A stretch of DNA of 41,002 bases from Cryomorphaceae bacterium (GCA_042091575.1 JBELHE010000001.1:1-41002), one strand, 5' to 3'. Positions 8,251 to 39,399 are shown, counted from the stretch's first letter. A program made the numbers and translations. Notes: generated from the sequence alone by a model not told the origin.

Positions 8251-8259
8251 ACTGTAAAA

Positions 8260-9372
8260 TTAAACTTTTTCAAAGAATGTGTCCGAATCATTCTCATTAT
8301 AAAACTCATTTATCCAAAACATACTAATAAGTGTTGAAGACCCTATATTCTCAATACTGTGTGTATACCAGACCTTCATATCTACATAACTTGGATTTTT
8401 TCCATTCAGTTTATATGTATTTATTTTGTTTGAACCAATTTTTCTAGTTCTAATCAAAGCTTCACCTTGAATTACAGTAAATCTCTCTATTTTTCTTGTA
8501 TGAAAATGATTACCTCTAGTTTTTTTTGGCTTAGTTAGTGAATATGAAACCTGGCCTGATGATTCAAATCTAATTACTTCGGAGAAAGATCCTCTAGTAT
8601 CTGATATTAAATTATGATTTTTAGGAAAGTGTTTTTCACTATTAATGTAGCTATGAAAAGTAGTAAAAAGATTCATCTTAAAATTACTGTCTAAATTTGG
8701 AATGTTTCCATCGAGAAAATATTTTTTATTGTAATCTTCAATTATTTTTTTTACATCTTCAACTTTGATTTTAATATCCTCTTTAATTAAAAAATCAGTA
8801 CTTATATCAGTTTGAAACTTTTCAATAATTATATCAACTAAATTATCTATGTAAATTAAAGAGACCTGATTATTTCCTTCAACGTTGTTAGGAATCCCAT
8901 TTATTTCATTATGACAGAATGTCGCAATAAATGAGTTATAGTTTGGCTTACAGAATGGACCAAATACATTTGGAATTATTAGATTAATAAAAGTAAAATT
9001 ATTATTTTTTGATGCTTTAAAAAATTTTTCTGTTGACAACTTCTTTGAGTTACCATATGGGTTATTATCACTATGCTGAGTTGATGATGCAAAAATTAAT
9101 TTTCCACTAAAATTAATTCTGGATAATGAGTTTATTAATTTATCAGTTATTATTAGATTTTTTTTTAAAACATAACTTTCATTTTGAGCTCTGTTAACTC
9201 CAGCAAGGTGAATAATTATATCAACCCTCGAGAGAGTTTTATCAAGATCGTTTTGAGTTTGAAATAATTTTTTTTCGAAGTTAATAATTTCAATATCTGG
9301 TAGACTAAATTTAATAGTATTATACAGGTGATAACCTATAAATCCTTCTTGGCCTGTAATTAATATCTTCAA
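8260..9372 (-). CDS. fnlB: FnlB/CapF/WbjC-type bifunctional reductase (N-terminal SDR plus C-terminal cupin)
   Basis: 370 aa. The N-terminal 'KILITGQEGFIGYHL' marks a Rossmann domain. The C-terminal ~110 aa carry cupin-like 'GNHFHTRKIERFTVIQGEALI' and 'WYTHSIENIG'. This two-domain layout is characteristic of CapF. Confidence 0.8.
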   Translation of the reverse strand: MKILITGQEGFIGYHLYNTIKFSLPDIEIINFEKKLFQTQNDLDKTLSRVDIIIHLAGVNRAQNESYVLKKNLIITDKLINSLSRINFSGKLIFASSTQHSDNNPYGNSKKLSTEKFFKASKNNNFTFINLIIPNVFGPFCKPNYNSFIATFCHNEINGIPNNVEGNNQVSLIYIDNLVDIIIEKFQTDISTDFLIKEDIKIKVEDVKKIIEDYNKKYFLDGNIPNLDSNFKMNLFTTFHSYINSEKHFPKNHNLISDTRGSFSEVIRFESSGQVSYSLTKPKKTRGNHFHTRKIERFTVIQGEALIRTRKIGSNKINTYKLNGKNPSYVDMKVWYTHSIENIGSSTLISMFWINEFYNENDSDTFFEKV

Positions 9373-9378
9373 ATTAAG

Positions 9379-10383
9379 TTAGTTTAGTTCAGACTTAACT
9401 GCAGGTAATTTCAGAAGAATCTGGATTAATTTTTCCTTACTTAGTAGTTCTGTGTTACTTGAATTATATTCAAATGTGTTTTTAATTTTGGTATTACCAT
9501 CCGAAAAATATTTATTATAGTTTAGGTCTCTACTGTCGCTGTTTATTCTATAGTGATTACCCAGATCATCAGACTTTAACATTTCCTCTTTAGTTACTAA
9601 AGTTTCATGAAATTTTTCACCATGTCTAATACCAATTGTTTTAATTTTTGACTTAGAGTTAAAAATTTCAATTAGAGCATCTGCAAGAACTTTAACTGTT
9701 GCAGCTGGAGCTTTTTTAACAAAAATATCACCCTGATTAGCATTTTCAAAAGCAAAATCTACTAAGTCTATTGCATCTTTAAGTGACATCATAAATCTAG
9801 TCATATTAGGATCTGTGATTGTTAAATCCATATTACTCTTGATTTGAGAAATAAATAGTGGAATAACAGATCCTCTGGACCCCATAACATTTCCATATCT
9901 TGTTCCACAAAAAATATGATTACCATCAAGCATTCTTGATTTAGCTATCATTACTTTTTCCATTAATGCCTTTGACATTCCCATTGCATTAATCGGATAA
10001 GCTGCTTTATCAGTACTTAGTATAACAACTTTTTTAACAGAATTAAACTCTGCAGAATTTAATATATTTTCGGTACCTAATATGTTTGTCTTAACAGCCT
10101 CGATAGGAAAGAATTCGCAAGATGGGACTTGTTTTAATGCAGCTGCATGAAAAATATAGTCAACATTTTTAACAACTTGGTTGACCGAATCGATATCTCT
10201 AACATCACCTATAAAGAATTTGACTTTTTCATTATTTAATTTTCTTCTCAAATCATCTTGCTTCTTTTCATCCCTACTCATAATGAAAATTTCAGAAAAC
10301 TTTTTCAAGTGAAGTGCTCTTTCGAGATATGCGCTTCCAAAAGAGCCTGTACCACCAGTTATTAATAGTTTATTTTTTTTCAT
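9379..10383 (-). CDS. fnlA: UDP-GlcNAc 4,6-dehydratase/5-epimerase, FnlA/CapE/WbjB type
   Basis: 334 aa with 'LLITGGTGSFG'. In 'STDKAAYPINAMGMSKALMEK', Met occupies the usual SDR Tyr position (MxxxK), the CapE/FnlA signature that separates it from PseB (YxxxK). Confidence 0.85.
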   Translation of the reverse strand: MKKNKLLITGGTGSFGSAYLERALHLKKFSEIFIMSRDEKKQDDLRRKLNNEKVKFFIGDVRDIDSVNQVVKNVDYIFHAAALKQVPSCEFFPIEAVKTNILGTENILNSAEFNSVKKVVILSTDKAAYPINAMGMSKALMEKVMIAKSRMLDGNHIFCGTRYGNVMGSRGSVIPLFISQIKSNMDLTITDPNMTRFMMSLKDAIDLVDFAFENANQGDIFVKKAPAATVKVLADALIEIFNSKSKIKTIGIRHGEKFHETLVTKEEMLKSDDLGNHYRINSDSRDLNYNKYFSDGNTKIKNTFEYNSSNTELLSKEKLIQILLKLPAVKSELN

Positions 10384-11485
10384 TACTAAGCTTTTTTATT
10401 TCGTTAGCTAATTTATTTAAGGATATAGAATCAGAAAACATTTTTTCTGCCAATTTATGGCCATTTTTTGATAAACTTTTCCTCAAGTTAACATCATTTA
10501 TTGTTTTTTCAATAGTCTTTTCTAGAATTAATTTATTTTTTGGCTCAATTAATAACCCGTTTAAATTGTGCTTTATGTAGTCAGGTATTATTCCAACATT
10601 TGAAGAAATTGACGGTAATCCAGATGCCAATGCTTCTATTAAAGAATTCGGCATACCCTCGTGCCAGGAGGGTAAAACAAAGACATCAGATGATTTAAGA
10701 TTTGCGAGAATTTCACTATTTGATAACCATCCTGAAATAAAAACCCTGTCTTCAATATTTTTTTCAGCACAATATTTGTCTATTTTATCTCTTAAACTAC
10801 CGTCACCAATAAATTTAATTTTTAAATCATAGCTTTTGGTAAGATTGTAGAAACTTTCCAATAGTTCTATAATCCCTTTTTGTTTTTCAAGCCAGCCAAC
10901 ATATATAATAGTGAGATTATCTTTTTTATCTTTAATAATCCGCTTTTTTCCAACTTCTAATAGTCCTTTAGTTGCAGTCCAATTATTTACAATAGATGTT
11001 TTTTTTGAATTAATTTTTAAATCATTGATTGCAAAATTGCTCCATGTAGGACCTTGTGCAAGGAAAATATCAGCTTTTGAAAAAAGAAATTTAATTAAAC
11101 CTCTAAATAGTTGACTATCCTTTGTTTGATTAATAAGATTTCCAGCCCTAGGAAAAATTAAAGTCTTAACAGATAGCAAATTGGAGATCAATATCATTAA
11201 ACCCTTCTCAAGTGCACTTGGTCCAGATGAACAAAAAATTAATATTACATCTGGTTTTTTATAAGTAATTGTAAATAAAAATCGAATAATTCTTAAAATC
11301 GATAAAAAAAATCTTACTATAAAAACTGGTGGAGGATTTGATATTTGAGATGAATCAAAGGGTATAATATCAAAATATTTAAATGGCTCTGAATCAATAA
11401 GAATTTTTGATGACTTAACAACTCCACCGAAAATTTTATTTTTTTTCTTTGGAAAGGCTCCAACAATCATGAGTTTTGCTTTCAT
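10370..11485 (-). CDS. GT4 (GT-B fold) glycosyltransferase
   Basis: 371 aa. 'VFVLPSWHEGMPNSLIEALASGLPSISSNVG' contains the E-x7-E motif of retaining GT4 enzymes. Confidence 0.85.
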   Translation of the reverse strand: MKAKLMIVGAFPKKKNKIFGGVVKSSKILIDSEPFKYFDIIPFDSSQISNPPPVFIVRFFLSILRIIRFLFTITYKKPDVILIFCSSGPSALEKGLMILISNLLSVKTLIFPRAGNLINQTKDSQLFRGLIKFLFSKADIFLAQGPTWSNFAINDLKINSKKTSIVNNWTATKGLLEVGKKRIIKDKKDNLTIIYVGWLEKQKGIIELLESFYNLTKSYDLKIKFIGDGSLRDKIDKYCAEKNIEDRVFISGWLSNSEILANLKSSDVFVLPSWHEGMPNSLIEALASGLPSISSNVGIIPDYIKHNLNGLLIEPKNKLILEKTIEKTINDVNLRKSLSKNGHKLAEKMFSDSISLNKLANEIKKLSNEKK

Positions 11486-11490
11486 AGAGA

Positions 11491-12666
11491 TTAATTGTTC
11501 AATATTTGTTTATAATTATTAATCATTTTTAATGAAAGTAACTTCTCAGAAAATTTTGAGTTACAATATTTTTTAATTTTAACCGGATCATAATTAAGGT
11601 AGTCTTCATAGATAGTAACCATTGCATTTGAAAAGTCATCTGTAGTCTTTTTATTCACTATAATCCCACAAAAATCTGGAATAATTTCATTAGAGCTCCC
11701 ACAGTTTAATGAGACTATTGGCCTACCTAGCGACATCGACTCAACAAATATTACCCCAAATGTTTCAAAAGAACTAGCATAAACAAAAGCGTTACAAGAA
11801 TTGAATTCCTGAACAATATTACCTCTCGAGATTTCGCCTAAAAAGAATACATTGTTTTGTAAATCGTTTTCATTAACAATAGTATTTAAATTTTTAAATT
11901 CTGATCCTATGCCAATAATTTGGAGTTTTGAATTTGGATATTTTTTATTAAATATTTTAAAAGATCTAATTATTAAATCAATGTTTTTTATTTTATGCAG
12001 CCTGGAAACACACAGAAAGGTAAAGTTTGATTTATCTGTACTTTTAAGTTTGGTTTTTAGAAAATGATCATTTACTATATTATGATGAAAATCCCATTTT
12101 TTATTTATTTTAAATTCTGAGTCAAGATATTTTGAATAATTTTCAGATACAGCGTAACATTTTTTTGATTTGTTAAGAACTCTTTTAACACTATTATAAA
12201 ATCGTTTGAATCCTTGATTATTGTAATAAAAACCGCTGTTATGCTCAGTAACTATGAATGGAATATCATGTGTATCGTAGATATATTCTCCTAAAAACCC
12301 CGCGTTAAAAACTGATTGGCAATGAATTAAATCTGGCATACCATTTTGTTTTATGTACTTTATAAACAAATAGTAACCAATATATTTGAAAGCTAATATT
12401 TGTAAAAACTTAGATTTAATAAACCAGTTACTCCATCGAAGTTTTATAATCTTTAGTCCTTCATCATCATAATATTGTACCTGAGGGAATACCCTAATGT
12501 CGAATGTATTTCGCAATGATTTTAACTCTGGATAAATAATACCAACATTACAGCCATTCTTTTTAATTCCAATTGCTTGTTCTCTAAAAAAACTACCCAT
12601 GTAATGACCGTTATGCTCTGGATACCATGAAGGAATAATAAGGATATGTAATTTTTTGTTTATCAT
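11491..12666 (-). CDS. GT4 (GT-B fold) glycosyltransferase
   Basis: 391 aa. 'FVYASSFETFGVIFVESMSLGRPIVS' contains the E-x7-E motif, and the N-terminus 'LHILIIPSWYPE' is typical of GT4. Confidence 0.85.
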   Translation of the reverse strand: MINKKLHILIIPSWYPEHNGHYMGSFFREQAIGIKKNGCNVGIIYPELKSLRNTFDIRVFPQVQYYDDEGLKIIKLRWSNWFIKSKFLQILAFKYIGYYLFIKYIKQNGMPDLIHCQSVFNAGFLGEYIYDTHDIPFIVTEHNSGFYYNNQGFKRFYNSVKRVLNKSKKCYAVSENYSKYLDSEFKINKKWDFHHNIVNDHFLKTKLKSTDKSNFTFLCVSRLHKIKNIDLIIRSFKIFNKKYPNSKLQIIGIGSEFKNLNTIVNENDLQNNVFFLGEISRGNIVQEFNSCNAFVYASSFETFGVIFVESMSLGRPIVSLNCGSSNEIIPDFCGIIVNKKTTDDFSNAMVTIYEDYLNYDPVKIKKYCNSKFSEKLLSLKMINNYKQILNN

Positions 12667-12672
12667 TATTTT

Positions 12673-13644
12673 TTAATATAATTGGATAAATTTATATTCT
12701 GACCCCAAGGATTCAGTGTAAACTGACAATGAAGATTGTGGGCCGATAATAATTTTTTTCTCATACATCATTTCTATCTCTAACATTACAGTTGAATCAC
12801 ATAGTTCTATTTTTTTTGAATTTAAATCATTAAAAATATCTGTAAATTCTTTAAATACTTCATTAGACGAAGTATAAGAAGGATGAGGCTTAATTAAAGA
12901 GTTAGTTGGTAAATGATCGATAAGTTTTTTAAGCATTTTTATCATATTCTCTTTTTTTGGCACTCTACTAGCTGAACATGTTAAACCAATTATTTTTTTG
13001 CCTAAAATTTTTGGCTCATAATATTTTTTAACTTCTTTAAAGTCTTTAAGTATATATCTTTTTGAACTTGGCATTAATGAAAATGATCTTTCGTCAATGC
13101 CTATGTAAGCTTCAGCGTCATCTCTAAAGGCTAAGCCTGTTCCCTCAAGATGAGGAATATGGGCAGTCGGCACAATTCGATTTGAAATATTCATTCTAAT
13201 CCTTTCAAATAAATCCAATTTATCAAATTTATATTCAGTATAACTAGCATATGCACTTTGTCCCTCTTCAACATGAATATGTCCTTTGCAGTTGTGTTTA
13301 GTTATTAACCAATTTACCTCTCGATATGCCCACCCAGAGAATAATAAGAAGTTCTTATGTGTTGAATTTATCTTTCTCAGTACTCTTCTTCCAGATGGTG
13401 AGTCAAAAAAAATCTTTTCTAAATATTTATCATATTTTTTCCTCTGAATTATTAGATAATTATGATCAAAAATTTCTAAAGATGTATCTCTTAGAGAGAC
13501 AATTAGGATGTTTTCTTTTTTTAAATTATAATTATCAATTATTATTCTTGTAATAATAGCTAAAATTGGATTAGGCACTAAGAAAACGTTCAACCAATTA
13601 TTATTAATTGATTTTTCAATAATTTCTGGTTTAGATAGTTTCAT
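12673..13644 (-). CDS. Hypothetical protein, candidate GT52-like CMP-ulosonic acid (sialyl-type) transferase
   Basis: 323 aa. It has an N-terminal 'NVFLVPNPILAIITRIII' block, an acidic 'HVEEGQS' at residues 125-130 and 'IKPHPS' at residues 251-256. This is the order and spacing of the D/E-D/E-G and HP motifs described for bacterial sialyltransferases. The motif match is by eye only. Confidence 0.35.
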   Translation of the reverse strand: MKLSKPEIIEKSINNNWLNVFLVPNPILAIITRIIIDNYNLKKENILIVSLRDTSLEIFDHNYLIIQRKKYDKYLEKIFFDSPSGRRVLRKINSTHKNFLLFSGWAYREVNWLITKHNCKGHIHVEEGQSAYASYTEYKFDKLDLFERIRMNISNRIVPTAHIPHLEGTGLAFRDDAEAYIGIDERSFSLMPSSKRYILKDFKEVKKYYEPKILGKKIIGLTCSASRVPKKENMIKMLKKLIDHLPTNSLIKPHPSYTSSNEVFKEFTDIFNDLNSKKIELCDSTVMLEIEMMYEKKIIIGPQSSLSVYTESLGSEYKFIQLY

Positions 13645-15014
13645 TAATATATTAAATCGATTTTTTTTAGCTTTTTATAGTAATCAAGAGATTCAGAGTA
13701 AGAAATATTACAAAGGTTTGATATTTCTTCTATAGTATTTCTACCATCACAATATGATATAAAGTTCATAAAGTTTTTAAATTGTTTTTTTTCCTGTTTT
13801 TTTGAAATATTTGGGTAAAGCCCTCTTTTACCTAGCTGTGGCTCACATAATACATTTATTTCTGGAAATATCTTATCACTTGAATACTTGTCTTTTTCTT
13901 TAATTTTTTTTGAGTGTATTTCTTGATTGACTCGACTGTTTTTTTCTTCTCTAGAAAATTTTTTGTTTTCAAAAACTTCAACACATTTTAAATATATATC
14001 CAGACTTTGATTTAAACCTTTTTCTGTTACTAAATCAAAATTATCAAGTGAGGTATGGTATTCAGGATAATTTCCATATTTTGATCTAGTGATTGATGAT
14101 ATTGGTAGATCTACGCCAGGTGAACAATATTGTCTTTCGTCACTACCTCTATCTAACCATGTATATTTTATAAATTCTGGATAGCACGAAGACAATACTT
14201 GCTCTGCAATTTTATCTGATTGGTTATTTCCATATCTGGATGGTACAAGCCCCCAGGATCTTTCATCTCCAACACATGTAATATTATAGCCACCTACAAC
14301 ATTTTTTTTCAAAATTTTAAAATTTTGACTAATGTACATGATTGAGCCAATTGTTTCAGGTATAAGGACAAACCTGTAAGAGTAGTAATTGTCAATCTGA
14401 CTGAGATGTTTAGCAATTCCAGTTAATACACTAGGACCTGAAAGTTCATTATTTACCATTTGTGGATGACAGATATAAGATGAGAATAAAATTTCTTTTT
14501 CTACTTTACCTTTAATAATATATTCTCCGTAAGCTAAATAACCATTTTCAATAAATTCTGAATCAATTAGAACTTTGTACCTTGATGCTTTATCTAATTT
14601 TTTAAAATCATTATAAGACATACAGAATCCCCAATTTTTTTCATAATACGATGTTACATATGGAATAGCATCAGGCTGATCTTTTATAAAATGAATGTTT
14701 TTAACTAATTCGCTAAATGAAATTTCTTTATTTATTGGGTAAGAGTAACCAACAACATGAAGATTATGATTTTTAAAATCAATTACTTTTTTATTTGTCT
14801 TAATGTCAATTACATAAGCATCATTTATATTCCATTCAGGAGGTACAACCCAATCAAAAACTTTACTACCTGAATTGACTTTTTTAATTTCAAAAGGGAT
14901 AATTTTTTTAATATAATTTAGAGTTTGAATAACACCTTTTCCAGATAAACTCCGAGGCACTTCATATAAATCCTTGCAAAAATTTAAAAGGTTCATTTTA
15001 TTTTTCATAGGCAA
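13644..15014 (-). CDS. Aminopeptidase-like (M28-like, DUF4910/DUF2172-type) protein with C-terminal winged-helix domain
   Basis: 456 aa. 'FVLIPETIGSI' and a C-terminal 'ISYCDGRNTIEEISNLCNISYSESLDYYKKLKKIDLI' resemble the DUF4910 plus HTH_47 architecture that I recall from polysaccharide loci. This is a recall-based call. Confidence 0.45.
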   Translation of the reverse strand: MPMKNKMNLLNFCKDLYEVPRSLSGKGVIQTLNYIKKIIPFEIKKVNSGSKVFDWVVPPEWNINDAYVIDIKTNKKVIDFKNHNLHVVGYSYPINKEISFSELVKNIHFIKDQPDAIPYVTSYYEKNWGFCMSYNDFKKLDKASRYKVLIDSEFIENGYLAYGEYIIKGKVEKEILFSSYICHPQMVNNELSGPSVLTGIAKHLSQIDNYYSYRFVLIPETIGSIMYISQNFKILKKNVVGGYNITCVGDERSWGLVPSRYGNNQSDKIAEQVLSSCYPEFIKYTWLDRGSDERQYCSPGVDLPISSITRSKYGNYPEYHTSLDNFDLVTEKGLNQSLDIYLKCVEVFENKKFSREEKNSRVNQEIHSKKIKEKDKYSSDKIFPEINVLCEPQLGKRGLYPNISKKQEKKQFKNFMNFISYCDGRNTIEEISNLCNISYSESLDYYKKLKKIDLIY

Positions 15015-16150
15015 TTTAACTCCTCTATATTTATTATTGTTTCAGGATTGACACCCATTTTGACAAGATTATTATATATATCCTCAAAATAATGTGGTCT
15101 ACAAATAATTAATTTATCAACTTTATTTTTAACCAAGTTCTTTGGAGGTTCTATTCTTGGTAGCCCGCTTAGCCATTTCATTCCAACCTTATATTCATCC
15201 CCATCGAAATATCTTATATTTTTGAAATTTTTATAATTATAACCATATTCTTCTCCACCTGCATAAAAACCAATAGATTCTCCTTTATTAATCATTTCAT
15301 CTAATTTCATTTTAATATTATTTTGTTTAATATTTAATCCATTTCCATATTTTTTTAGATTATTTAATTCTTCTTTTTGGATTTCCAATGGCCATTTATA
15401 GGTAGTTTTCTCATCCAAAAATCCCCATATCATCAACTCGTTTTTGTTTTTTGTAAGACTGATAGATGAATTAATAAATCCCTGAGAATGAAATAATTTA
15501 ACTCCATTTCTTGGAGTAAAATAATTTATATGTTGATGAATAAGGTGATCTAAGTTGAACTCTAGAAATGAAAGCTCTGAGTTAGGCACTAAATGAAAAA
15601 ATAGTCCATTATTTTTCAAACAAGCTCTACTTTGTTCAAAAAATGATCCTAAATCATCAATATGTTCAAGACATCCATATGAAAAAATACAATCAAATTT
15701 TTCGCTTATTATTTCCTTTGATAAAATCTCTTTATGAATTTCTAATCCATATTTCTCAATTGCGACATTAGCTTGAGGACCTATTTCAATTCCTTTAACA
15801 ATAGCTTCCTTTTTTTTCAGTTCATTTAAAAGAGTTCCATTTCCACAACCTATTTCTAAAAGTTTTTTCCCTGAAACATCTCCACCCATAACAGAAATTA
15901 ATTTATCAGAAAATTGATTCATTCTTAAAGTAGATAAGTCACTCTCACCAAGTGGTGTAGATACGAAACTGCCTATTTCATATAGTTTCTCTAGAGCTAT
16001 TTTTATTTCATCGTTTAATATCAGGCGAGGTATGGAGTACTCTGGGTGAATACCCATTTTAAAGGGTAAAGATAGTGGTAAAGTTTTAAAATCTTCTCTT
16101 ATGGCTCCAGCATAAAACGGGTGGTCAGAAATATGAATTATAGCTTTCAT
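15005..16150 (-). CDS. Class I SAM-dependent methyltransferase with an extra C-terminal domain
   Basis: 381 aa. 'KLLEIGCGNGTLLNEL' is SAM motif I and 'FDCIFSYGCLEHIDD' follows it. About 150 further C-terminal residues resemble the sugar C-/O-methyltransferase C-terminal domain layout. Confidence 0.8.
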   Translation of the reverse strand: MKAIIHISDHPFYAGAIREDFKTLPLSLPFKMGIHPEYSIPRLILNDEIKIALEKLYEIGSFVSTPLGESDLSTLRMNQFSDKLISVMGGDVSGKKLLEIGCGNGTLLNELKKKEAIVKGIEIGPQANVAIEKYGLEIHKEILSKEIISEKFDCIFSYGCLEHIDDLGSFFEQSRACLKNNGLFFHLVPNSELSFLEFNLDHLIHQHINYFTPRNGVKLFHSQGFINSSISLTKNKNELMIWGFLDEKTTYKWPLEIQKEELNNLKKYGNGLNIKQNNIKMKLDEMINKGESIGFYAGGEEYGYNYKNFKNIRYFDGDEYKVGMKWLSGLPRIEPPKNLVKNKVDKLIICRPHYFEDIYNNLVKMGVNPETIINIEELNCL

Positions 16151-16190
16151 TATATTTTAGATTTAAAATTATAGATCATTAATTTTTTTA

Positions 16191-17039
16191 TTATTCAAAA
16201 TCATTTAATTCAAACCCTCTTCCTAATGCGTCAATCTTTTTTCTTACCCATTTTTTTGATTCTTTAGCTAAAAAATAATATGGATCTTCGTTTAGTCTAT
16301 TTGTCCAATAATCACATACTTTTCTAACTGAAAATAGAGTTATATAATTCACATCTGTAAATATTTTATATTCATAAAGTAAATTTTCATTTAACAAGTC
16401 TAAATGAATCTTTTTCCAATCGTATTTAATTCTTTTTTTTAAAGGTGAGACTTGATAGTCTAGGATAACATTTGTCTCTAAACTATTATTTTTTACTATA
16501 CCATAAAACTTTTTTGAATACCTATATAAATCTTTTTTTGTAATATTCTCCACATAGTGTAATATTGATGTAAGACTAATATCTGAACCATAGTGACAGT
16601 AAACTGATTTGTTTTCATATAAATAATGAAACTCTGAACCAAAGGAAAATGGATTTATAACTTGTCCTGATTTAATATTCTCAATCGGATATTTTCCCAT
16701 TCCAGAAAAATTAAATACTGGAGTTGTTGTTCTCCAGTGACAAAATTTTCTAAAATAATTATTTAAATGACCTACTTGACATATATCCTCATTTACATTA
16801 TATAAACCTGTTTTTGTAAAATCATAATTAAAAGTTGGCATCCAAATATTAAATTCTGAAAAAATATTATTAATGTTATTCATGTGTTTTTCTAATAAGT
16901 CTATTTTCGACTTAAACTTAAAGAGAAAAAGATTTTTGATATCTGAGTGAATCAAAACATGTTCACCGCCTAGTTTTCTGGAAACTGATTTCACTTTTTT
17001 ATTTATTTTCAAAAATGTACTAGAATCTATATACTGCAT
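16191..17039 (-). CDS. AAC(3)-fold (Antibiotic_NAT-like) acyltransferase candidate
   Basis: 282 aa. 'LGGEHVLIHSDIKNL', 'NIWMPTFNYDF' and 'QVGHLNNYFRKFCHWRTTTPVFNFSGMG' follow the order of the conserved blocks of aminoglycoside 3-N-acetyltransferase-family proteins (..vHsS.., ..mPtft.., ..G.l.e.fr...R..hP..Sf...G). Confidence 0.5.
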   Translation of the reverse strand: MQYIDSSTFLKINKKVKSVSRKLGGEHVLIHSDIKNLFLFKFKSKIDLLEKHMNNINNIFSEFNIWMPTFNYDFTKTGLYNVNEDICQVGHLNNYFRKFCHWRTTTPVFNFSGMGKYPIENIKSGQVINPFSFGSEFHYLYENKSVYCHYGSDISLTSILHYVENITKKDLYRYSKKFYGIVKNNSLETNVILDYQVSPLKKRIKYDWKKIHLDLLNENLLYEYKIFTDVNYITLFSVRKVCDYWTNRLNEDPYYFLAKESKKWVRKKIDALGRGFELNDFE

Positions 17040-17062
17040 TTTAAGTTATTGTTAATTTTAAA

Positions 17063-17302
17063 TCATAATTTAGATTCAATTGATAAAATTATCTCTCCAA
17101 TATTTTTCCAATTATTTATCTCTCTAGAATTAAATTTTATTTTAAATTTTTTTTCTATTTCAACAATTAAAATAATATGATTAAGAGAATCCCATCCTTC
17201 AATATCCATTGCAGAGTTTTCTTCACTTATCTGTATTTCTTCCTCTAAAACATCTATAAAAACTTCATTTAAAGTTTTTAATATTTCTGTTCTTTTCATC
17301 AT
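17063..17302 (-). CDS. Acyl carrier protein
   Basis: 79 aa and acidic. 'IEGWDSLNHIILIVEIE' contains the DSL phosphopantetheine-attachment serine motif at the usual position. The 5' end overlaps the FkbH-like gene by 38 nt. Confidence 0.8.
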   Translation of the reverse strand: MMKRTEILKTLNEVFIDVLEEEIQISEENSAMDIEGWDSLNHIILIVEIEKKFKIKFNSREINNWKNIGEIILSIESKL

Positions 17303-19013
17303 ATATTTTAATTTTTGTTTCTAATCTTTTTTTCATAGATGTCTTTAATGAATACTTATCCCTGTTTTTTTTAAATCCTAATTTTGAGTATAGATCTTTA
17401 ACAATTGTATTTTTTGATGTTCTCTTGTATTCTGAGTTAATTTGATTTATTTTTTTTCTCACACAAAAATCTTCAACGTTATTAAGTATGAAATTTTCCA
17501 TTCCTCTTCCAAATACTCTACAACTCATCGCCCAATTTTCAATAAAAACTTTATTTGATGACATCATTGTTAAAATGACATAACTAATAATTCCATAATC
17601 CCCAAACTTATCTTTTAAATGAAACACTAACCCATATTTATTATCTGATCTCATTATTTCAAATAAATCTTCTTCTGAATAACGAACAGTTCTTAAATTA
17701 AATTGATTTGATCTTTGAGATAATTGAGAGACTCTTGGGATATTAAATTCAGTTAGATAATCTATTTTGGATTCCATTTCAAGATTAATCATATAGTCTG
17801 ATAAATCCGTGAATTTGCTTTTTGATTTTTCTCTTTCATACTCAGTCTGATATAGTTTAGTCCTATCCTTATCTAAATTAGAAATATTGTTAGTCTCAAA
17901 TAGATTTTCATCATAAAGAAATTGTAAATAGTTTGATGGATCCTCTGGCATTTCAGGAACAGTTATGTCTGGTATATTATCCCTTACTAAATTTCTCTCG
18001 TAAGGATTATCATCAATAAATACAATTGAATCAAATCCAATATTTAAAACCTTCTGTATATTTTTTATATTATCAACTTTAGAATTCCAATTTGCAACAA
18101 AAACAGAGATGTCATCCAAAGATAGAACCATATCTGGGTGGTTAATAAAAACATTCTTTGCCGCGCTCTCATTATTTTTAGAACAAATACAGATTATTAT
18201 TCCTCTTTGTTTGAGCTTTTTAACCCAATATTGAAAATCAACAAAAGCTTTACCAACACCTAAATTACCTAACTGAATGTTCTCTATTCCATCATCCCCT
18301 ATAATCCCTCCCCATAATGTATCGTCTAAATCTAGGATCAAGCATTTTTTAAAAATTGAGTTTTGTGATAATAATATGTCAATAATATTTTTTGAAATAT
18401 GTGGAAGTGTGTCAAGATGAAAGATCATGCCATAATTTACATACATAGATAAATCAACCATATTTTTGGAACCAATTCTATTTTGTAGAGTAGATATATC
18501 AAGAATACATATTCGATTTTCGTTCAAAGAAAATTCACTAATTAAAAAATTTAATTTTCTCAAATGATATATAAAAGAAGTCCTGCTTTTTGATGAAAAA
18601 TTTCCATAAAGTTGATCATTTAATTCATAAAAATTAAATAGTATTACTTTAGATTTATTAGACTTTTGTATTCTCTCAACTAATTTTTTAATTCTATCAA
18701 ATTGTTTTTGAGAAAAATCCTCAGAGCTAGAATTTGAATTATATTTTTTTAATAGTGAATGAGTAGATTCAAAAATAATAGTTGTATCAAAATTCTTATT
18801 ATTATATGAAGATTCGGGGTTAAGTATTTCATTGTCAATTTGATTGATGGGAGCTTCCCATATAGATAGATTAAATAATTTTTTTAAACCATATCCGTAG
18901 ATAGTTTTTTTAAGAAATTGAGTAGTTTGATCTGATAATATAGCTATACTATTCTTTTTAAAGCTTGAGACATCTTTCTTTTTTATTTGTAATAATTCCC
19001 TAAATGAATACAT
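17265..19013 (-). CDS. FkbH-like protein (HAD subfamily IIIC phosphatase domain plus acyl-S-Cys/GNAT-like domain)
   Basis: 582 aa. 'CLILDLDDTLWGGIIGDDG' is HAD motif I (DxDxT) as in FkbH. 'IVFIDDNPYER' is HAD motif IV. The C-terminal 'ENWAMSCRVFGRGMENF' matches the conserved SCRV.GRG block that carries the catalytic Cys. Confidence 0.8.
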   Translation of the reverse strand: MYSFRELLQIKKKDVSSFKKNSIAILSDQTTQFLKKTIYGYGLKKLFNLSIWEAPINQIDNEILNPESSYNNKNFDTTIIFESTHSLLKKYNSNSSSEDFSQKQFDRIKKLVERIQKSNKSKVILFNFYELNDQLYGNFSSKSRTSFIYHLRKLNFLISEFSLNENRICILDISTLQNRIGSKNMVDLSMYVNYGMIFHLDTLPHISKNIIDILLSQNSIFKKCLILDLDDTLWGGIIGDDGIENIQLGNLGVGKAFVDFQYWVKKLKQRGIIICICSKNNESAAKNVFINHPDMVLSLDDISVFVANWNSKVDNIKNIQKVLNIGFDSIVFIDDNPYERNLVRDNIPDITVPEMPEDPSNYLQFLYDENLFETNNISNLDKDRTKLYQTEYEREKSKSKFTDLSDYMINLEMESKIDYLTEFNIPRVSQLSQRSNQFNLRTVRYSEEDLFEIMRSDNKYGLVFHLKDKFGDYGIISYVILTMMSSNKVFIENWAMSCRVFGRGMENFILNNVEDFCVRKKINQINSEYKRTSKNTIVKDLYSKLGFKKNRDKYSLKTSMKKRLETKIKIYDEKNRNIKNFK

Positions 19014-19069: not shown

Positions 19070-20449
19070 TTAAATTGAAAAATTTAAATTTTTAATCTGA
19101 ATACTATCTTTAGTGGACATTTCAATAAACGAGGTGTTTGACCCAAAAAGACTTCCAGTTTTAATAGTCTTCCATTTTGTTGCAATAATTGAACCATTAA
19201 ATCTATATAGTTTTTCTTTATCAAATGAAAGGTTTCTAAATCTACCTGGATTAATTAAATCAAGCCCCAACTTACCATAATTGAACATAGGCTCTCTTTC
19301 TTCTTGGACCGAAACAACAGAATCTGAACCAGATACCAATAAATTATTAATGGCTTTGTCAATATGTATTCTTCTTCTATTTATTGCATGTAAACTAAGG
19401 TACATAACTATATCAGGAAAAATTCCAGTCTCTTTAGCATAATGTTCACCAGCAGAAAACATAAAATCTCTTATAGGAATATTATTAGTTTCATTGTCTT
19501 GAGTCCTTAATAATCTTATATGGTTTGGAACTTTATTTTTATTCTCTAATTCCTCAGAAAAATCTAAAACACTTTGACTCTTAGAATAGACAATAAGATC
19601 ATCAATTTCGTTTGACTTTAAAGCATTATTAATAGCAATCTCTAATAGTGATTTGCCTCTAATTTTTTTATATGGAACATTTTTTAAACTAGGATAAGAC
19701 TCTTTAATTGGAATTAAAGCTACTATTTTTAAATTATTTTCTCCAATAGTCTTTTTTCTAATCTCATGAAGAATTTTTGCTCTTGCTTTCAATAATCTAG
19801 AATTATCTTTACTTAGAGATTTATCATGTTGCCTGTAGTAAAATAAAGGTAAATCAATGCTTACAGCTCCTATTTTTTTATAAAGTTTATACCAAAGATC
19901 CCAACCATCTTGGGCATCTACTCCCTCAGAATATCCTCCTGCTATTCTTAGTGACTGTGTTTCAAACATTGTACATGCACCATGAGGAGGTAGTTGACCT
20001 GTTAAATCTTCATCTCCTAGCTTATGTCTTGTTTCAACACCAATAATCTTTCCACTATAATTAGTATAAAAGTAATTACCATAGGCAATACCTGCCTTTG
20101 AATTCTTTTCAAGCTTTTCAACCATTATGAATAACGCAATTTCATTCAACCAATCATCAGCGTCAAGTCTTATCATGTATTTACCATTTGCTTTTTCTAA
20201 AACTTCATTAGCTACTTTTTGAAGGCCTTTTGGTGTTTTATTTTTAATAAAAAATATTCTTGATGGATATTTTTCTTTATATTTTTTAGCAACCAATTCT
20301 GTATTATCATCAGAGCCTTCATCAATTATAAATAGTTCCCAGTTTATATATATCTGATCAACAATACTTTGGATAGACTGATCGAGAAACCTTCCATAAT
20401 TTCTGGACGGAATATAAATTGTAACTAGTGGTGAAGTTTTCATAATCAT
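19070..20449 (-). CDS. Fusion protein: N-terminal GT2 glycosyltransferase plus C-terminal cytidylyltransferase-like (CTP_transf_3-like) domain
   Basis: 459 aa. Residues ~8-215 carry 'VTIYIPSRNYGRFLDQSIQSIVDQ', 'IIDEGSDDNT' and 'RLDADDW' (GT2). Residues ~240-459 carry 'IVALIPIKESYPSLKNVPYKKIRGKSLLEIAINNALKS', which resembles the NeuA/KdsB N-terminus. The usual PAR-GS-K loop is replaced by PIKESYPSLK. Confidence 0.7.
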   Translation of the reverse strand: MIMKTSPLVTIYIPSRNYGRFLDQSIQSIVDQIYINWELFIIDEGSDDNTELVAKKYKEKYPSRIFFIKNKTPKGLQKVANEVLEKANGKYMIRLDADDWLNEIALFIMVEKLEKNSKAGIAYGNYFYTNYSGKIIGVETRHKLGDEDLTGQLPPHGACTMFETQSLRIAGGYSEGVDAQDGWDLWYKLYKKIGAVSIDLPLFYYRQHDKSLSKDNSRLLKARAKILHEIRKKTIGENNLKIVALIPIKESYPSLKNVPYKKIRGKSLLEIAINNALKSNEIDDLIVYSKSQSVLDFSEELENKNKVPNHIRLLRTQDNETNNIPIRDFMFSAGEHYAKETGIFPDIVMYLSLHAINRRRIHIDKAINNLLVSGSDSVVSVQEEREPMFNYGKLGLDLINPGRFRNLSFDKEKLYRFNGSIIATKWKTIKTGSLFGSNTSFIEMSTKDSIQIKNLNFSI

Positions 20450-21507
20450 TTTTTATAATCTATGTCCTTAAAAACTGCCTTTAATGGTTCGATATCTTTT
20501 AGAGCTTTTGACCCTTCCATCTGAGAGAAAAATCTAGCATCTGTTCCAGCTAAAGGTCTCAAACAAATCATATCCTGTTTTTTTATTATTTCTCCCTTTT
20601 TTAAAGGTTTATTTAAATATATAGCACGTCTAAAAGATTTGTGATGATTGTTATCAATCTCCGTTTGTAACAGTTTTTTCTCTGAATTACCTCTAATCTC
20701 ACTAACCAAGTTTATATGATCCTTTAACTCATCAACCTCTTTTTTGGTTAGCGAAACTTTATGATCTCTGAATTTTTTATTTTTTCTATCATCTGTAAAG
20801 TGAAACTCTAAGACATTGGCCCCCATAGTAGCTGCAATTTTGAGTGCATCAATTCCCTCAGTGTGATCTGAATAGCCAACAGACAGTTTAGTAATTTTTT
20901 TGTAATCCAACATAACATCTAAGTGAACATCAGATTCTACTATTGGATACATAGAAGTACATTGAAGTAGACAGATCATTTCTTTGTTTTTATAATTACT
21001 ATCAAGATTTTGAATGAACCCTATCGTTTCAATTACCTCTTCTTTGGTAGACAAGCCTGTTGACAAAATGATAGGTTTTCTTAGTTTTACTATTTCCTTA
21101 ATTACAGGAAAAGCTGTTAAATCACCCGAGCCAATTTTATAAAATTCTACGTATGGATTTATCCAACTTAAATCCTCTGAACTCCATATTGAAGATGTAT
21201 AAAGTTTTCCATTAGAAATACATTTTTTAGCAAGAGCAATATGTTGGCTCTTGGATAATTCAAATTTTTGAAAGTGTTTATGTCTTTTTGGATTCTCAAT
21301 TTTACTTACTAGAGAGTCAGCATTATAAATTTGAAATTTAATTACATCTGCTGCTGAATCTATTGCTAAATCAACTAGTAAATTAGCTTTTTCATAATCT
21401 CCTTCATGATTTCCTCCAATTTCAGCAATTAGTAATGGTCTGTTTAGGCCATTCCAGGGTGAGCTAAATTTACTTTTTAAACTATTATCTAAATATCTAT
21501 TTTTCAA
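20446..21507 (-). CDS. NeuB-family nonulosonic acid synthase (NeuB/PseI/LegI/SpsE type) with C-terminal SAF-like domain
   Basis: 353 aa. 'PLLIAEIGGNHEGDYEKANLLVDLAIDSAADVIKFQ' is the NeuB N-terminal signature. The C-terminal 'LKKGEIIKKQDMICLRP' looks like a SAF domain. Confidence 0.85.
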   Translation of the reverse strand: MKNRYLDNSLKSKFSSPWNGLNRPLLIAEIGGNHEGDYEKANLLVDLAIDSAADVIKFQIYNADSLVSKIENPKRHKHFQKFELSKSQHIALAKKCISNGKLYTSSIWSSEDLSWINPYVEFYKIGSGDLTAFPVIKEIVKLRKPIILSTGLSTKEEVIETIGFIQNLDSNYKNKEMICLLQCTSMYPIVESDVHLDVMLDYKKITKLSVGYSDHTEGIDALKIAATMGANVLEFHFTDDRKNKKFRDHKVSLTKKEVDELKDHINLVSEIRGNSEKKLLQTEIDNNHHKSFRRAIYLNKPLKKGEIIKKQDMICLRPLAGTDARFFSQMEGSKALKDIEPLKAVFKDIDYKK

Positions 21508-21509
21508 TT

Positions 21510-23279
21510 TTATCTACTTTTAGAAATTAAATAATCACCTATCAATAAATGATGTAGTCCACATCTAATAAAAGTTGAGATAGCATCATCAGGGCTTCCT
21601 ACAATTGGCTCACCATGAATATTAAATGAAGTATTCATCAAAGCTCCAACTCCTGTTAAATTTTCAAAAGCCTTAATCAAAGAGTGGTATGAAGGGTTGT
21701 CTTCCTTAAAGACAATTTGGGGTCTTGCAGTTCTATCAAATGGATGTAACCCTGCGGGAATATCCTTTTCAGCTAAACTTGTTGTGTCAAATCCAACTGC
21801 CATAAAACGTGAGTCTATGGATTTTGAATTCTTTATATAGTCGTGTTCTCTCTCGGAAATAATACTTGGTGCAAAAGGCATCCAGAAATCTCTCATTTTT
21901 ACTAATTTGTTTATATGATGTATAACCTCAGGTTTTCTTGGATCAGCAAGAATAGATCTGCTCCCAAGAGCTCTTGCTCCAAACTCCATCCCTTCATTAC
22001 CAAAACGCGCAACAACATCCCCTTTTGCTAATAATTTTGCTATCATATCGTTGTCTGCTTGTTTAACAGAATAATCATTTGATAGATTTTTTTCAAGAGA
22101 TTTTTTAATTTCGATGTTTGAAAAAGATGGGCCCAAATAGCCATTTGCTGGAGCTATAATTTCACTAACACTTTTTTTCTCAAGTAAAGCTAAGTAAGCA
22201 GCTCCAATTGATATTGATTCATCACCTGGACCAGGAGGAACAAAAAGATAGTTTAAACCATCTAACTCTGTTATTAATTTATTTGCTTTTATATTTTGTG
22301 CAACCCCACCAGATAGGACTATATTCTTAATACCCGTTTCATTTATTCCATTTGAAATCCAATTCACCAGAAGCTCTTCGCATCTTTTTTGTATTCCATA
22401 AGCAATTGCATCAAACCTTTGTCCCTCTAACTTTTCTTTGAAGTAAAAAAAATGATCTTTTATTTCTTTTTTATACTTGAAGCCGAGTCCATCATTTTGC
22501 AATGTTTCAGCATATACATTATACGCTTCATTTCCATACTTCTCAGAATTATAGGCTGCAAGACCCATTAATTTATATTCATGCTCAGCTGGTCTCATCC
22601 CTAAGAGCAAAGTAGCATACCTATAAAGTCTACCAATATTACAATTTGAAGATCTAGAAATTTCATTTAAAAGTTGTCCAGGACTTCCTTTTGAAACTGT
22701 TCCATTAGCATTATCTCCAAAGCCATCCATAGTATAAACTAGTAGGTCCTTGTCTTTTAATGGACACATCATATAAGAATAATAGGCATGACACTTATGG
22801 TGATTGTAATAAGAAATTTTTTGTTCACTAATGTTAAGAAAATCTGCCATATGTTTTACTCTTGCGTTCCACATTCCATCTGAATCTGACTCATTATTTA
22901 TTAAACTTTCGTCATATGGAAAATTTTTCTTTTCAACTCTGTGAGATAAAACATCTAAATATTTTGGGTTTTTATTTTCAATTAACTTTGGATACCAATA
23001 TTCTTTTTGCTCTTTCCAATAGTCTAATACAGTTAAATTCGCATTTCTACCTGTGTAAAAATAGCCTGGAGAAAGAGTATTTGACGACATAGCAACTTTA
23101 TCAATTTGAGTTGATTTAATTCCACCCTTTTTTAATACACATTTAATTGCTTTTTCAGGAAAACCATAGTGATTTTTTTGTCTTGACAGCCTTTCTTCTG
23201 CAACAGCACATTCTAATTTTCCATCAATTATTAAAGCTGCGCTTGCGTTATGTCCGTCATGTATTCCAAGAATTATCAT
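21510..23279 (-). CDS. Carbamoyltransferase, NodU/CmcH family
   Basis: 589 aa. 'MIILGIHDGHNASAALIIDGKLECAVAEERLSRQKNHYGFPEKAI' and the overall length match NodU/CmcH O-carbamoyltransferases. Confidence 0.9.
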   Translation of the reverse strand: MIILGIHDGHNASAALIIDGKLECAVAEERLSRQKNHYGFPEKAIKCVLKKGGIKSTQIDKVAMSSNTLSPGYFYTGRNANLTVLDYWKEQKEYWYPKLIENKNPKYLDVLSHRVEKKNFPYDESLINNESDSDGMWNARVKHMADFLNISEQKISYYNHHKCHAYYSYMMCPLKDKDLLVYTMDGFGDNANGTVSKGSPGQLLNEISRSSNCNIGRLYRYATLLLGMRPAEHEYKLMGLAAYNSEKYGNEAYNVYAETLQNDGLGFKYKKEIKDHFFYFKEKLEGQRFDAIAYGIQKRCEELLVNWISNGINETGIKNIVLSGGVAQNIKANKLITELDGLNYLFVPPGPGDESISIGAAYLALLEKKSVSEIIAPANGYLGPSFSNIEIKKSLEKNLSNDYSVKQADNDMIAKLLAKGDVVARFGNEGMEFGARALGSRSILADPRKPEVIHHINKLVKMRDFWMPFAPSIISEREHDYIKNSKSIDSRFMAVGFDTTSLAEKDIPAGLHPFDRTARPQIVFKEDNPSYHSLIKAFENLTGVGALMNTSFNIHGEPIVGSPDDAISTFIRCGLHHLLIGDYLISKSR

Positions 23280-23290
23280 TTTTTCTATTT

Positions 23291-24016
23291 TTAATTATTA
23301 TTAATATTTGTTGAGAAATTAAGCTCCCATTTATTAGCTATATCTATAATTGACTTTGAGCTTAAATGGATTTTTTGTTCTTTGTGTTTTTCTATAATCC
23401 ACCCTATCTTTCTTAAGTCGTCTTCATTATCTAGAACTAATCTAGTTGAAATATTTTTTAAAAAAATATTTTTATGGTTTACTAAATTAATTTTAAAATT
23501 ATTGTGGTTGTCATAGAAAAACTTTGTGATATGTTCTTTGTCAGAGTTATTTATTATTAAATCATTTACTGAATCTAAAGATTTTACATTGATTATTTCT
23601 GCTGATAAACCAAATGGAACTGATCTAGGGAAAATATTTGTTGTTATATCTGCATCAGAAGTTTTATGGCTAGATAAAAGCTCATCATATATTTTTGAAT
23701 TAATGAAAGGCCTATCTCCACATATCCTTGCAAAATATTTATAACCAAATTTTTTTGATGCCTGAAGAGCTCTATCAATCACATCTTCCTCGCTACCTCT
23801 AAAAACATCTATTCCAAGATCATTTGCAAAGGCTTCAATTTTATCATCTTCATGACTTAATGAAGTAGCAATACATAAATGGTTGATATTTTTTATCTTT
23901 TTAGATGCATCAATTACTCTTTGGAGTAATGTTATTCCATCAATCATTTTTAATGCCTTACCTGGCAGTCTGGTTGAATTCATTCTAGTAAATATGATAC
24001 CTCCAATTATATTCAT
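23291..24016 (-). CDS. Cytidylyltransferase, SpsF-like (CTP_transf_3 family)
   Basis: 241 aa. 'GGIIFTRMNSTRLPGKALKMIDGITLLQRVIDA' matches the SpsF-type 'QARmgStRLPgK' N-terminus. Confidence 0.8.
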   Translation of the reverse strand: MNIIGGIIFTRMNSTRLPGKALKMIDGITLLQRVIDASKKIKNINHLCIATSLSHEDDKIEAFANDLGIDVFRGSEEDVIDRALQASKKFGYKYFARICGDRPFINSKIYDELLSSHKTSDADITTNIFPRSVPFGLSAEIINVKSLDSVNDLIINNSDKEHITKFFYDNHNNFKINLVNHKNIFLKNISTRLVLDNEDDLRKIGWIIEKHKEQKIHLSSKSIIDIANKWELNFSTNINNN

Positions 24017-39323: not shown

Positions 39324-39340
39324 TTTTTAGTATATAAGTA

Positions 39341-39374
39341 TAAAAATAAAAAAACCCTCCATAAAGGAGGGTTT
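39341..39374 (-). terminator. Rho-independent terminator downstream of the Thr/Ala-rich protein gene
   Basis: The minus strand reads AAACCCTCC-tttat-GGAGGGTTT, a 9-bp stem with arms at 39366..39374 and 39352..39360. It is followed directly by TTTTATTTTTA. The element begins 25 nt after the stop codon at 39400..39402. Confidence 0.8.
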
Positions 39375-39399
39375 AATTTATACAAAGTTATTAGTTAAA

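Follow-up and report, generated by a model that had tools for sequence, protein, structure and literature searches.

A five-gene cassette in a surface-glycan locus of a Cryomorphaceae bacterium as a candidate acyl carrier protein-dependent N-acyl swap module

The stretch of DNA analyzed in this study (the window) comprises 41,002 nucleotides of a Cryomorphaceae bacterium (GCA_042091575.1, JBELHE010000001.1:1-41002) and is one long surface-glycan locus with a GC content of about 28%. The subject here is a cassette of five minus-strand genes (13644-19013) encoding an FkbH-like loader, an acyl carrier protein (ACP), a protein with the fold of aminoglycoside 3-N-acetyltransferases (AAC(3)-like), an S-adenosylmethionine (SAM) methyltransferase and a DUF4910 protein (Table 1). 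An earlier sequence-only reading of the window had described the five as tightly packed and partly overlapping, and all of the open reading frames (ORFs) were found where it placed them, with overlaps of 4 to 38 nt and gaps of 23 to 40 nt. Domain annotation used Pfam on all 38 window ORFs of at least 100 aa, together with NCBIfam profiles at their curated cut-offs. The cassette is real and intact, and the catalytic motifs of its loader and AAC(3)-like protein are kept.

Table 1. Genes of the cassette and its immediate neighbours in the window
Feature	Coordinates	Strand	Size	Basis or remark
FkbH-type HAD-IIIC loader	17265..19013	-	582 aa	TIGR01686, FkbH_N, PDB 3SLR, conserved motifs
Dedicated ACP	17063..17302	-	79 aa	PP-binding, Ser38 in DSL
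AAC(3)/Antibiotic_NAT-fold acyltransferase	16191..17039	-	282 aa	Pfam, Foldseek, motif, neighbourhood, Maritalea fusion
Class I SAM methyltransferase with C-terminal extension of ~150 aa	15005..16150	-		Methyltransf_23
DUF4910/DUF2172/winged helix-turn-helix (wHTH) protein, Cj1295 / CA_C2195 family, putative single-metal M28-like site	13644..15014	-		Pfam, PDB 3K9T
ORF without family match	12673..13644	-	323 aa	Start overlaps DUF4910 stop by 1 nt
GT2 + CTP_transf_3 fusion, NeuB-family synthase, NodU-type carbamoyltransferase, cytidylyltransferase	19070..24016	-		Co-directional, upstream of cassette

The assignment of the loader to the FkbH type, made at first from its motifs, was borne out by profile searches. 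TIGR01686 (FkbH) scored 299.7 bits (cut-off 146.65), TIGR01681 (HAD-IIIC) scored 60.1 bits (cut-off 35.75), Pfam FkbH_N matched at 3.3e-47 (161.4 bits), and residues 1-378 matched PDB 3SLR, a fragment of B. fragilis BF1531, at 2.3e-117. The HAD motif I and the cysteine block that had been noticed are both present ('LDLDDTLWGG' from D228 and 'SCRVFGRG' from S497). Residues D228, D230, T232, S278, N280, K312, D334, D335, S497, C498 and R499, among them the catalytic Asp and Cys, are invariant in an alignment with four homologues that lie beside AAC(3)-like and DUF4910 genes in other phyla. The FkbH domain, the DxDxT motif, the C-terminal Cys and a dedicated downstream ACP are shared with the FkbH and OzmB loaders, and by analogy the protein is predicted to convert 1,3-bisphosphoglycerate to glyceryl-S-ACP via a thioester on Cys498. 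The ACP, described earlier as a 79-aa protein with a DSL motif and a 38-nt overlap with the loader gene, scored 25.4 bits with PP-binding (Pfam cut-off 20.8) and has DSL at residues 37-39. Its start does overlap the FkbH stop by 38 nt, and this overlap recurs in 5 of 6 independent marine metagenome contigs; the remaining contig has the ACP called one codon shorter, with an overlap of 35 nt.

The AAC(3)-like protein passed the Pfam threshold for Antibiotic_NAT (PF02522) narrowly, with 30.1 bits against a cut-off of 25. A single-sequence phmmer search against the PDB gave noise only, and a 17-sequence profile gave no significant PDB match (YokD was marginal, E 0.049). Because sequence searches were insufficient, a comparison of folds was required to settle the matter. 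The AlphaFold model built on the 17-sequence alignment had a pLDDT of 85.7, and the top 50 Foldseek matches were all Antibiotic_NAT-fold proteins (probability 1.00, TM-scores 0.58-0.65), including AAC(3)-IVa (1.4e-10), YokD, FrbF and BA2930, even though identity to solved family members was only 10-16%. The fold proposed for this ORF from its conserved blocks is thus upheld by both the predicted structure and the PF02522 score. Characterised Antibiotic_NAT enzymes, whose fold is built around a three-stranded parallel sheet, all use acetyl-CoA, and their mechanism deprotonates an amine by way of a His/Glu dyad in the motif TxΦHΦAE. The aminoglycoside acetyltransferases, YokD, BA2930 and FrbF share both fold and motif with the window protein, in which S158-I-L-H161-Y-V-E164 matches TxΦHΦAE. 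Across 144 representatives with pairwise identity of at most 50%, the Thr is conserved in 93%, the His in 97% and the Glu in 100%; the subfamily amounts to about 1,400 clusters (50% identity) scoring at or below 1e-10. The substrate that FrbF (PDB 3SMA) N-acylates is a CMP-linked amine of a biosynthetic pathway rather than an antibiotic.

The remaining two members, described before as a SAM methyltransferase and an aminopeptidase-like protein, were unambiguous by Pfam. The methyltransferase is class I (Methyltransf_23, 2.7e-18), and its closest PDB matches are generic methyltransferases, with a weak match to a sugar C-methyltransferase. It is collinear, at 23% identity and including the C-terminal domain, with a methyltransferase encoded between FkbH and AAC(3)-like genes in another locus (L014), and is a candidate for the O-methylation of the glyceroyl group. 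The DUF4910 protein matched DUF4910 at 8.6e-92, DUF2172 at 2.6e-31 and HTH_47 at 1.3e-16, so that it has the three-domain layout of DUF4910 with an inserted DUF2172 and a C-terminal HTH_47, and it matched PDB 3K9T (CA_C2195) at 3.3e-98. In metagenome copies its start was called at the ATG at 15008. Both histidines of the metal site are kept (H183 and H320, corresponding to His189 and His324 of CA_C2195), as is the Pro at the site of the former M28 catalytic Glu. Residues 353-382 (window positions ~13869-13958) form a Lys-rich insertion of about 30 aa between the metallopeptidase-like and wHTH domains, as defined relative to 421-aa homologues and 3K9T. The family is large and comprises 8,000 or more clusters at 90% identity.

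A survey of gene co-occurrence, which the sequence-only reading had suggested, was carried out by scanning genomes with the AAC(3)-like alignment and searching the neighbourhoods with the window proteins by tblastn. This gave 49 loci, 21 from closer relatives and 28 from Chloroflexi. Where the sequence reaches far enough, the AAC(3)-like gene is almost always followed directly by DUF4910, and the pair occurs in Bacteroidota, Actinomycetota, Deltaproteobacteria, Ignavibacteria, Erysipelotrichia, Helicobacter, Psychrobacter and Chloroflexi; the Methanoregula pair is split between opposite strands, about 3 kb apart. The 'M28-like protein' of the earlier reading is thus not peripheral: no other gene accompanies the AAC(3)-like gene as constantly across loci. 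Eight of the related loci have NeuB and CMP-transferase genes close to the pair. An ACP-like ORF was detected with an ACP profile within 3 kb and on the same strand in 14 of the 21 loci from closer relatives. All 16 ACP matches (16/16) fell within 3 kb of an AAC(3)-like gene and none farther, and five of the adjacent small ORFs were identified as ACPs by Pfam PP-binding. On pDG3-1a of Agrobacterium salinitolerans there is a complete pse set (pseB, C, F, G, I and pseH), adjoined by a gene annotated as 'AAC(3) family N-acetyltransferase' and by a DUF4910 gene, with an IS3 element separating these two.

The enzyme that would load the ACP varies among these loci. It is FkbH in four (L007, L013, L014 and L015), an AMP-ligase plus a short-chain dehydrogenase/reductase (SDR) in L004 by Pfam (ORFs of the same size and place in L002 and L006 were read likewise by position), an AMP-ligase in the Helicobacter valdiviensis locus (L020) by Pfam, and a ketoacyl-ACP synthase III (KAS III) in L005 by Pfam, with a KAS III-like ORF recognized by eye in L008. 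A constant AAC(3)-like/DUF4910 pair next to exchangeable ACP loaders is what would be expected if the AAC(3)-like protein is the common outlet for acyl-ACPs. Additionally, two gene fusions were found. Plasmid pHL2708Y3 of Maritalea myrionectae (NZ_CP021332.1; locus L136, 4937-8915) encodes an 819-aa Antibiotic_NAT::FkbH fusion (WP_162889379.1), annotated only as 'HAD-IIIC family phosphatase', in which a complete Antibiotic_NAT domain (2e-25) at the N-terminus precedes an FkbH part that shares 30% identity with the window FkbH (7e-68). The fusion gene is followed by genes for a MaoC-ketoreductase-ACP protein (annotated only as 'SDR family oxidoreductase'), DUF4910, a NeuB-family protein and a GT2 protein, and pseB lies upstream. 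The second fusion, in an uncultured Helicobacter metagenome-assembled genome (L019, 6204-8984), is a 926-aa ORF joining an AMP-binding ligase to DUF4910/DUF2172/HTH_47, which may be an assembly artefact; in H. valdiviensis the AMP-ligase and DUF4910 are separate adjacent genes.

Judged from sequence and gene context, the AAC(3)-like protein is predicted to transfer an acyl group from the ACP to a sugar amine. The adjacency to ACP genes, the fusion to FkbH in one genome and the glycan setting set this subfamily apart from known Antibiotic_NAT proteins, and argue for a donor other than acetyl-CoA and an acceptor other than the 3-amine of an aminoglycoside. Such an ACP-to-sugar transfer by an AAC(3)-fold enzyme had been called undescribed, and this stands as far as the literature search reached. 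There is a precedent in butirosin biosynthesis for the overall logic, where an acyl group is built on a dedicated ACP and moved to a sugar amine (BtrI/BtrH). BtrH has a different, papain-like fold, and no deacetylase partner.

The gene set itself is not new. The same five components (DUF4910, AAC(3)-type, ACP, FkbH and methyltransferase) occur in the module for the dimethylglyceroyl-modified flagellar pseudaminic acid (Pse) of Campylobacter jejuni, with the Campylobacter side of this comparison drawn from published work and general background. On that side Cj1296/7 is taken as AAC(3)-type and Cj1300 as the SAM methyltransferase. In strain NCTC 11168, Cj1295 is a DUF2172/M28-like protein, and the locus also encodes the N-acetyltransferase Cj1296/7, the ACP Cj1299 and the FkbH-domain gene cj1302. 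Cj1295 is required for 7-acetamido-5-(2,3-di-O-methylglyceroyl)amino-Pse, the compound was identified as CMP-7-acetamido-5-(2,3-di-O-methylglyceroyl)amino-Pse, and Cj1295 was proposed to cleave the N5 acetamido group (Hitchen et al. 2010). In this product a nonulosonic acid bears an O-methylated, N-linked glyceroyl group, as the sequence-only reading had predicted for the window. However, the window differs from C. jejuni in having no pse, maf or flagellin genes, only one methyltransferase, no fabH2 and no second ACP, and in being a lipopolysaccharide- or capsule-type locus with a Wzy_C protein, an ABC exporter and L-FucNAc genes. A similar neighbourhood was listed for Clostridium acetobutylicum when the structure of CA_C2195 was solved (Das et al. 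2014): a NeuB-type synthase, a nucleotidyltransferase, Maf, an aminosugar N-acetyltransferase, an ACP and an 'N-acetyltransferase + HAD phosphatase'. The authors suggested a role in the synthesis of modified carbohydrates, by transacylation or deacylation of an amino sugar. CA_C2195-CA_C2199 belong to a flagellar glycosylation island with Maf, and the acidic ligand is Asp195 there versus Glu190 in the window protein. The cassette is therefore a further example of a module known from Campylobacter genetics and noted by comparative genomics, found here in a marine polysaccharide locus that is not flagellar. Both the gene set and its implied chemistry had been described before.

A second survey started from the loader, using the FkbH alignment to scan metagenomes, and returned 80 loci. 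An ACP-like ORF is present in about 62 of the 80, mostly directly after FkbH, and none of the loci inspected is a polyketide synthase (PKS)-like cluster. Genes for AAC(3)-like proteins were seen only with the closest FkbH relatives (L056 and L059-L061, 65-70% identity). Enough downstream sequence (at least 4 kb) was available for 39 loci, of which 25 have a membrane-bound O-acyltransferase (MBOAT) gene, five of these also with a DltD-like gene; Acyl_transf_3 was found in 2, AAC(3) plus DUF4910 in 2, and no acyltransferase was detected in 11. Some loci carry a MaoC dehydratase and an SDR after the ACP, as in L056 (FkbH-ACP-MaoC-SDR-AAC3), and this pair of enzymes would turn glyceryl into a lactyl-type unit. 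The window has no MaoC or SDR gene after the ACP, so glyceroyl is the acyl group expected there. The MBOAT-type loci (L062 at 7986-13416, L083 at 8001-12416, and also L063, L068, L070, L072 and others) sometimes include a DltD-like (DUF1574) gene and often MaoC and SDR genes before the MBOAT. From their gene content these loci look like systems for Dlt-style O-acylation of an extracytoplasmic polymer with glyceroyl or lactyl groups, and we know of no characterised example of such an FkbH-ACP-MBOAT system.

On balance, the cassette is probably an 'N-acyl swap' module that depends on an ACP and acts on a nucleotide-activated amino sugar or nonulosonic acid. In the model proposed here, the FkbH-like protein would take 1,3-bisphosphoglycerate, dephosphorylate it at D228/D230 and pass the glycerate via Cys498 to the phosphopantetheine of the ACP, as its family membership suggests. 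The SAM methyltransferase may O-methylate the glyceroyl unit, either on the ACP or after transfer, and this is the weakest step. The single-metal site of the DUF4910 protein, predicted from its setting to be a sugar de-N-acetylase, would strip the N-acetyl group derived from UDP-GlcNAc, in keeping with gene context and the hypothesis of Hitchen et al. (2010), and in this way DUF4910 probably supplies a free amine to its AAC(3)-like partner. His161 and Glu164 of the latter would then activate the amine for attack on glyceroyl-S-ACP, a step to which fold, motif, neighbourhood and the Maritalea fusion all point. The product would be an N-glyceroyl or N-(O-methylglyceroyl) sugar, built into a surface polysaccharide by the neighbouring transferases. 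The need for a deacetylase follows from the origin of the amine. The N5 of nonulosonic acids derives from C2 of a hexosamine and arrives acetylated, so any other acyl group at N5 requires de-N-acetylation. This applies to C. jejuni, where the acyl group is on N5, which is GlcNAc-derived and acetylated, so that a deacetylase is logically needed. None of the 38 annotated ORFs of the window encodes an aminotransferase, so its only sugar amines are N-acetylated ones and de-N-acetylation would be needed for any acceptor made there. The earlier proposal of a glyceroyl-ACP that an AAC(3)-fold enzyme delivers to a sugar is thus strengthened by the conserved neighbourhoods, the Maritalea fusion and the C. 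jejuni chemistry, and this support is comparative in kind.

A number of observations weigh against the N-acyl swap reading, several of which lend themselves to other explanations. Most non-PKS FkbH-ACP loci feed an MBOAT and not an AAC(3)-like protein (25/39 versus 2/39). No enzymology for Cj1296-Cj1302 or DUF4910, and no ACP-dependent Antibiotic_NAT enzyme, was found in the literature, and the window proteins were compared with Cj1295-Cj1302 by description. The genome scan reached Helicobacter but gave no Campylobacter locus, and the homologues listed for the DUF4910 protein were all near relatives from marine sources. With regard to the acceptor sugar, both NeuB-family synthases of the window score below the NCBIfam cut-offs for NeuB and PseI. 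Dependence on an ACP is also not universal, since the 28 Chloroflexi loci, mostly about 20 kb long, gave no ACP match. These loci (L022-L049, Chloroflexi / Anaerolineae) have distant AAC(3)-like genes (23-28% identity) followed by DUF4910. The acyl donor there may be a CoA thioester, and a deacetylase paired with an acetyl-CoA-dependent transferase would look futile. The Chloroflexi pairs, the acetyl-CoA dependence of all characterised relatives and the use of MBOAT or Acyl_transf_3 in most FkbH-ACP loci would fit an AAC(3)-fold protein that is an ordinary acetyl-CoA-dependent sugar N-acetyltransferase, with the glyceroyl-ACP being used by another, unrecognised transferase (for example the 323-aa ORF or a glycosyltransferase) and adjacency reflecting only a shared pathway. 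This is considered unlikely, because no MBOAT, Acyl_transf_3 or other acyltransferase is annotated in the window, ACP genes track the AAC(3)-like genes whatever the loader, and an AAC(3)-like::FkbH fusion exists.

The DUF4910 protein raises difficulties of its own. The CA_C2195 ligand Asp195 is replaced by Asn in the window protein, with Glu190 at the +1 position. It should be noted that Glu is found at +1 in 24 of the 25 other DUF4910 proteins aligned (HP[SQ]M.NNE versus HPSMCND), and that only the Methanoregula protein (L017) keeps the CA_C2195 form, HPSMCND. In addition, CA_C2195-type proteins do not have the M28 catalytic Asp/Glu, and an amidase role would, in the view of Das et al. (2014), need 'distinctive' residues. 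The AMP-ligase::DUF4910 fusion could mean that DUF4910 acts on the acyl-ACP side. In a different division of labour, DUF4910 would itself be the transacylase (glutaminyl-cyclase-like with a single zinc, taking the acyl group from the ACP or exchanging amides on the sugar) and the AAC(3)-fold protein would have a separate N-acylation or accessory role. Transacylation was one of the proposals of Das et al. (2014), the ligase fusion would tie DUF4910 to ACP loading, and Cj1295 alone was shown genetically to be needed. However, DUF4910 and AAC(3)-like genes also occur together without an ACP, the acyl-transfer motif of the AAC(3)-like proteins is complete in 97-100% of the 144 representatives, and the fusion partner of FkbH is the AAC(3)-like domain, so this division is regarded as improbable. 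Less probable again is an acyl group placed on a hydroxyl, or on a lipid-linked or polymerised glycan, instead of on a nucleotide-sugar amine. The sequence-only reading had allowed for a hydroxyl acceptor, and the MBOAT/DltD-like loci imply O-acylation outside the cytoplasm, but in the Antibiotic_NAT mechanism it is an amine that is deprotonated, the acyl group of the C. jejuni product is held in an amide and the compound was detected as a CMP-sugar, and the five proteins match only soluble-enzyme families by Pfam. An FkbH protein with a dedicated ACP is a hallmark of methoxymalonyl-ACP and tetronate polyketide pathways, and PF02522 takes its Pfam name from antibiotic N-acetyltransferases; on these grounds the cassette might be a part or remnant of a polyketide pathway, or the AAC(3)-like gene an aminoglycoside-resistance gene. 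This is very hard to credit. The methoxymalonyl or PKS reading was rejected because the dehydrogenases and the ketosynthase are absent from the window, and the resistance reading was rejected on gene context. The Pfam annotation of the 38 ORFs contains no ketosynthase, acyltransferase (AT) domain or FkbI/FkbK-type dehydrogenase, and no FkbG-type O-methyltransferase or PKS acceptor was found in the 41 kb, in agreement with the earlier statement that no PKS or fatty acid synthase partner is present. All related loci inspected are glycan loci, and the closest structural relatives include the non-resistance proteins YokD, BA2930 and FrbF. In this the window departs from the FkbH and OzmB pathways, which it resembles in its loader, and the predicted outlet for its ACP is a sugar acyltransferase and not a PKS.

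If the N-acyl swap reading is extended to the whole group, the AAC(3)-like subfamily would comprise the first Antibiotic_NAT-fold N-acyltransferases that depend on an acyl-ACP, and together with DUF4910 as a single-metal sugar de-N-acetylase would form a widespread two-enzyme N-acyl editing module in bacteria and at least one archaeon, which swaps the GlcNAc-derived acetyl group of nonulosonic acids or hexosamines and accepts plug-in loaders (FkbH for glyceroyl or lactyl, AMP-ligase, KAS III). This broader proposal is possible but falls short of probable. It bears on a recognized problem, since serotype and recognition by phages and the immune system are shaped by the N-acyl variants of pseudaminic, legionaminic and related acids, and few of the enzymes that install acyl groups other than acetyl are known, which a Tannerella paper calls 'a major challenge'. 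What the surveys add is the constant AAC(3)-like/DUF4910 pair, the interchangeable ACP loaders and the two fusions, which make the hypothesis of an ACP-dependent AAC(3)-fold enzyme directly testable. If true, it would give a function to the DUF4910 family, add acyl-ACP as a new class of donor for a fold seen until now solely in antibiotic resistance and FrbF, and make the N-acyl chemistry of glycans predictable from genomes, including those of abundant uncultured marine bacteria.

The surroundings of the cassette agree with the glycan setting that had been claimed for it, and the NeuB-type synthases, cytidylyltransferases and glycosyltransferases named earlier were all annotated in the window. 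There are two NeuB-family synthases, three cytidylyltransferase domains and a NodU-type carbamoyltransferase, as well as L-FucNAc genes (FnlA-like, WbcJ-like and WecB-type), a TviB-like dehydrogenase, Ugd, glycosyltransferases, an ABC exporter and a Wzy_C protein. No hydrolysing NeuC-type epimerase was annotated in the window, no pseB/C/H/G, maf or flagellin genes were seen there, and no tRNA genes were found in it. The block of genes directly upstream of the cassette is a candidate source of a CMP-ulosonic acid acceptor. A nonulosonic acid is a plausible acceptor; L-FucNAc and a TviB-type uronic amino sugar are further products of the locus. The NeuB-family synthases lie at 20446-21507 and 27714-28604 on the minus strand, one with an SAF domain and one without. 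The one at 27714-28604 sits with a GFO/IDH/MocA oxidoreductase and a zinc-alcohol dehydrogenase-like protein, and these neighbours suggest an unusual ulosonic acid. Directly between the NeuB and FkbH genes, an ORF at 19070-20449 (minus strand) has a GT2 domain fused to a weak C-terminal CTP_transf_3 match. Between the NeuB and cytidylyltransferase genes is the NodU/CmcH-type carbamoyltransferase (21510-23279, minus strand), which implies a carbamoylated sugar in the same glycan. A 498-aa ORF at 24013-25509 (minus strand) has a faint match to Capsule_synth (KpsS/KpsC-like, E 0.032), and a similar stretch occurs near NeuB and CMP-transferase genes in locus L004.

The 323-aa ORF at the other end of the cassette is coupled to DUF4910 by its 1-nt overlap, and its membership in the cassette is uncertain. 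It had no match in Pfam or NCBIfam and only noise in a PDB sequence search, its single-sequence AlphaFold model had a pLDDT of 35 and no usable fold, and it is not conserved beside the module in the related loci compared. It contains 'HVEEGQ' and 'KPHPS', picked out by eye, which to us recall the D/E-D/E-G and HP motifs of bacterial sialyltransferases, an unconfirmed impression. The ORF may encode a glycosyltransferase for the modified sugar. Several marine metagenomes contain contigs arranged in the same way. The L21 protein encoded at the left flank is 90% identical to one from a 'Candidatus Neomarinimicrobiota' metagenome-assembled genome, a single named match and thus a weak pointer to Marinimicrobia. 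At the left end the locus is closed by this ribosomal L21 gene (46-486), and at the right end (39001-41002) the GC content rises from about 28% to 34-39%, so that core genome seems to flank the glycan island at either end.

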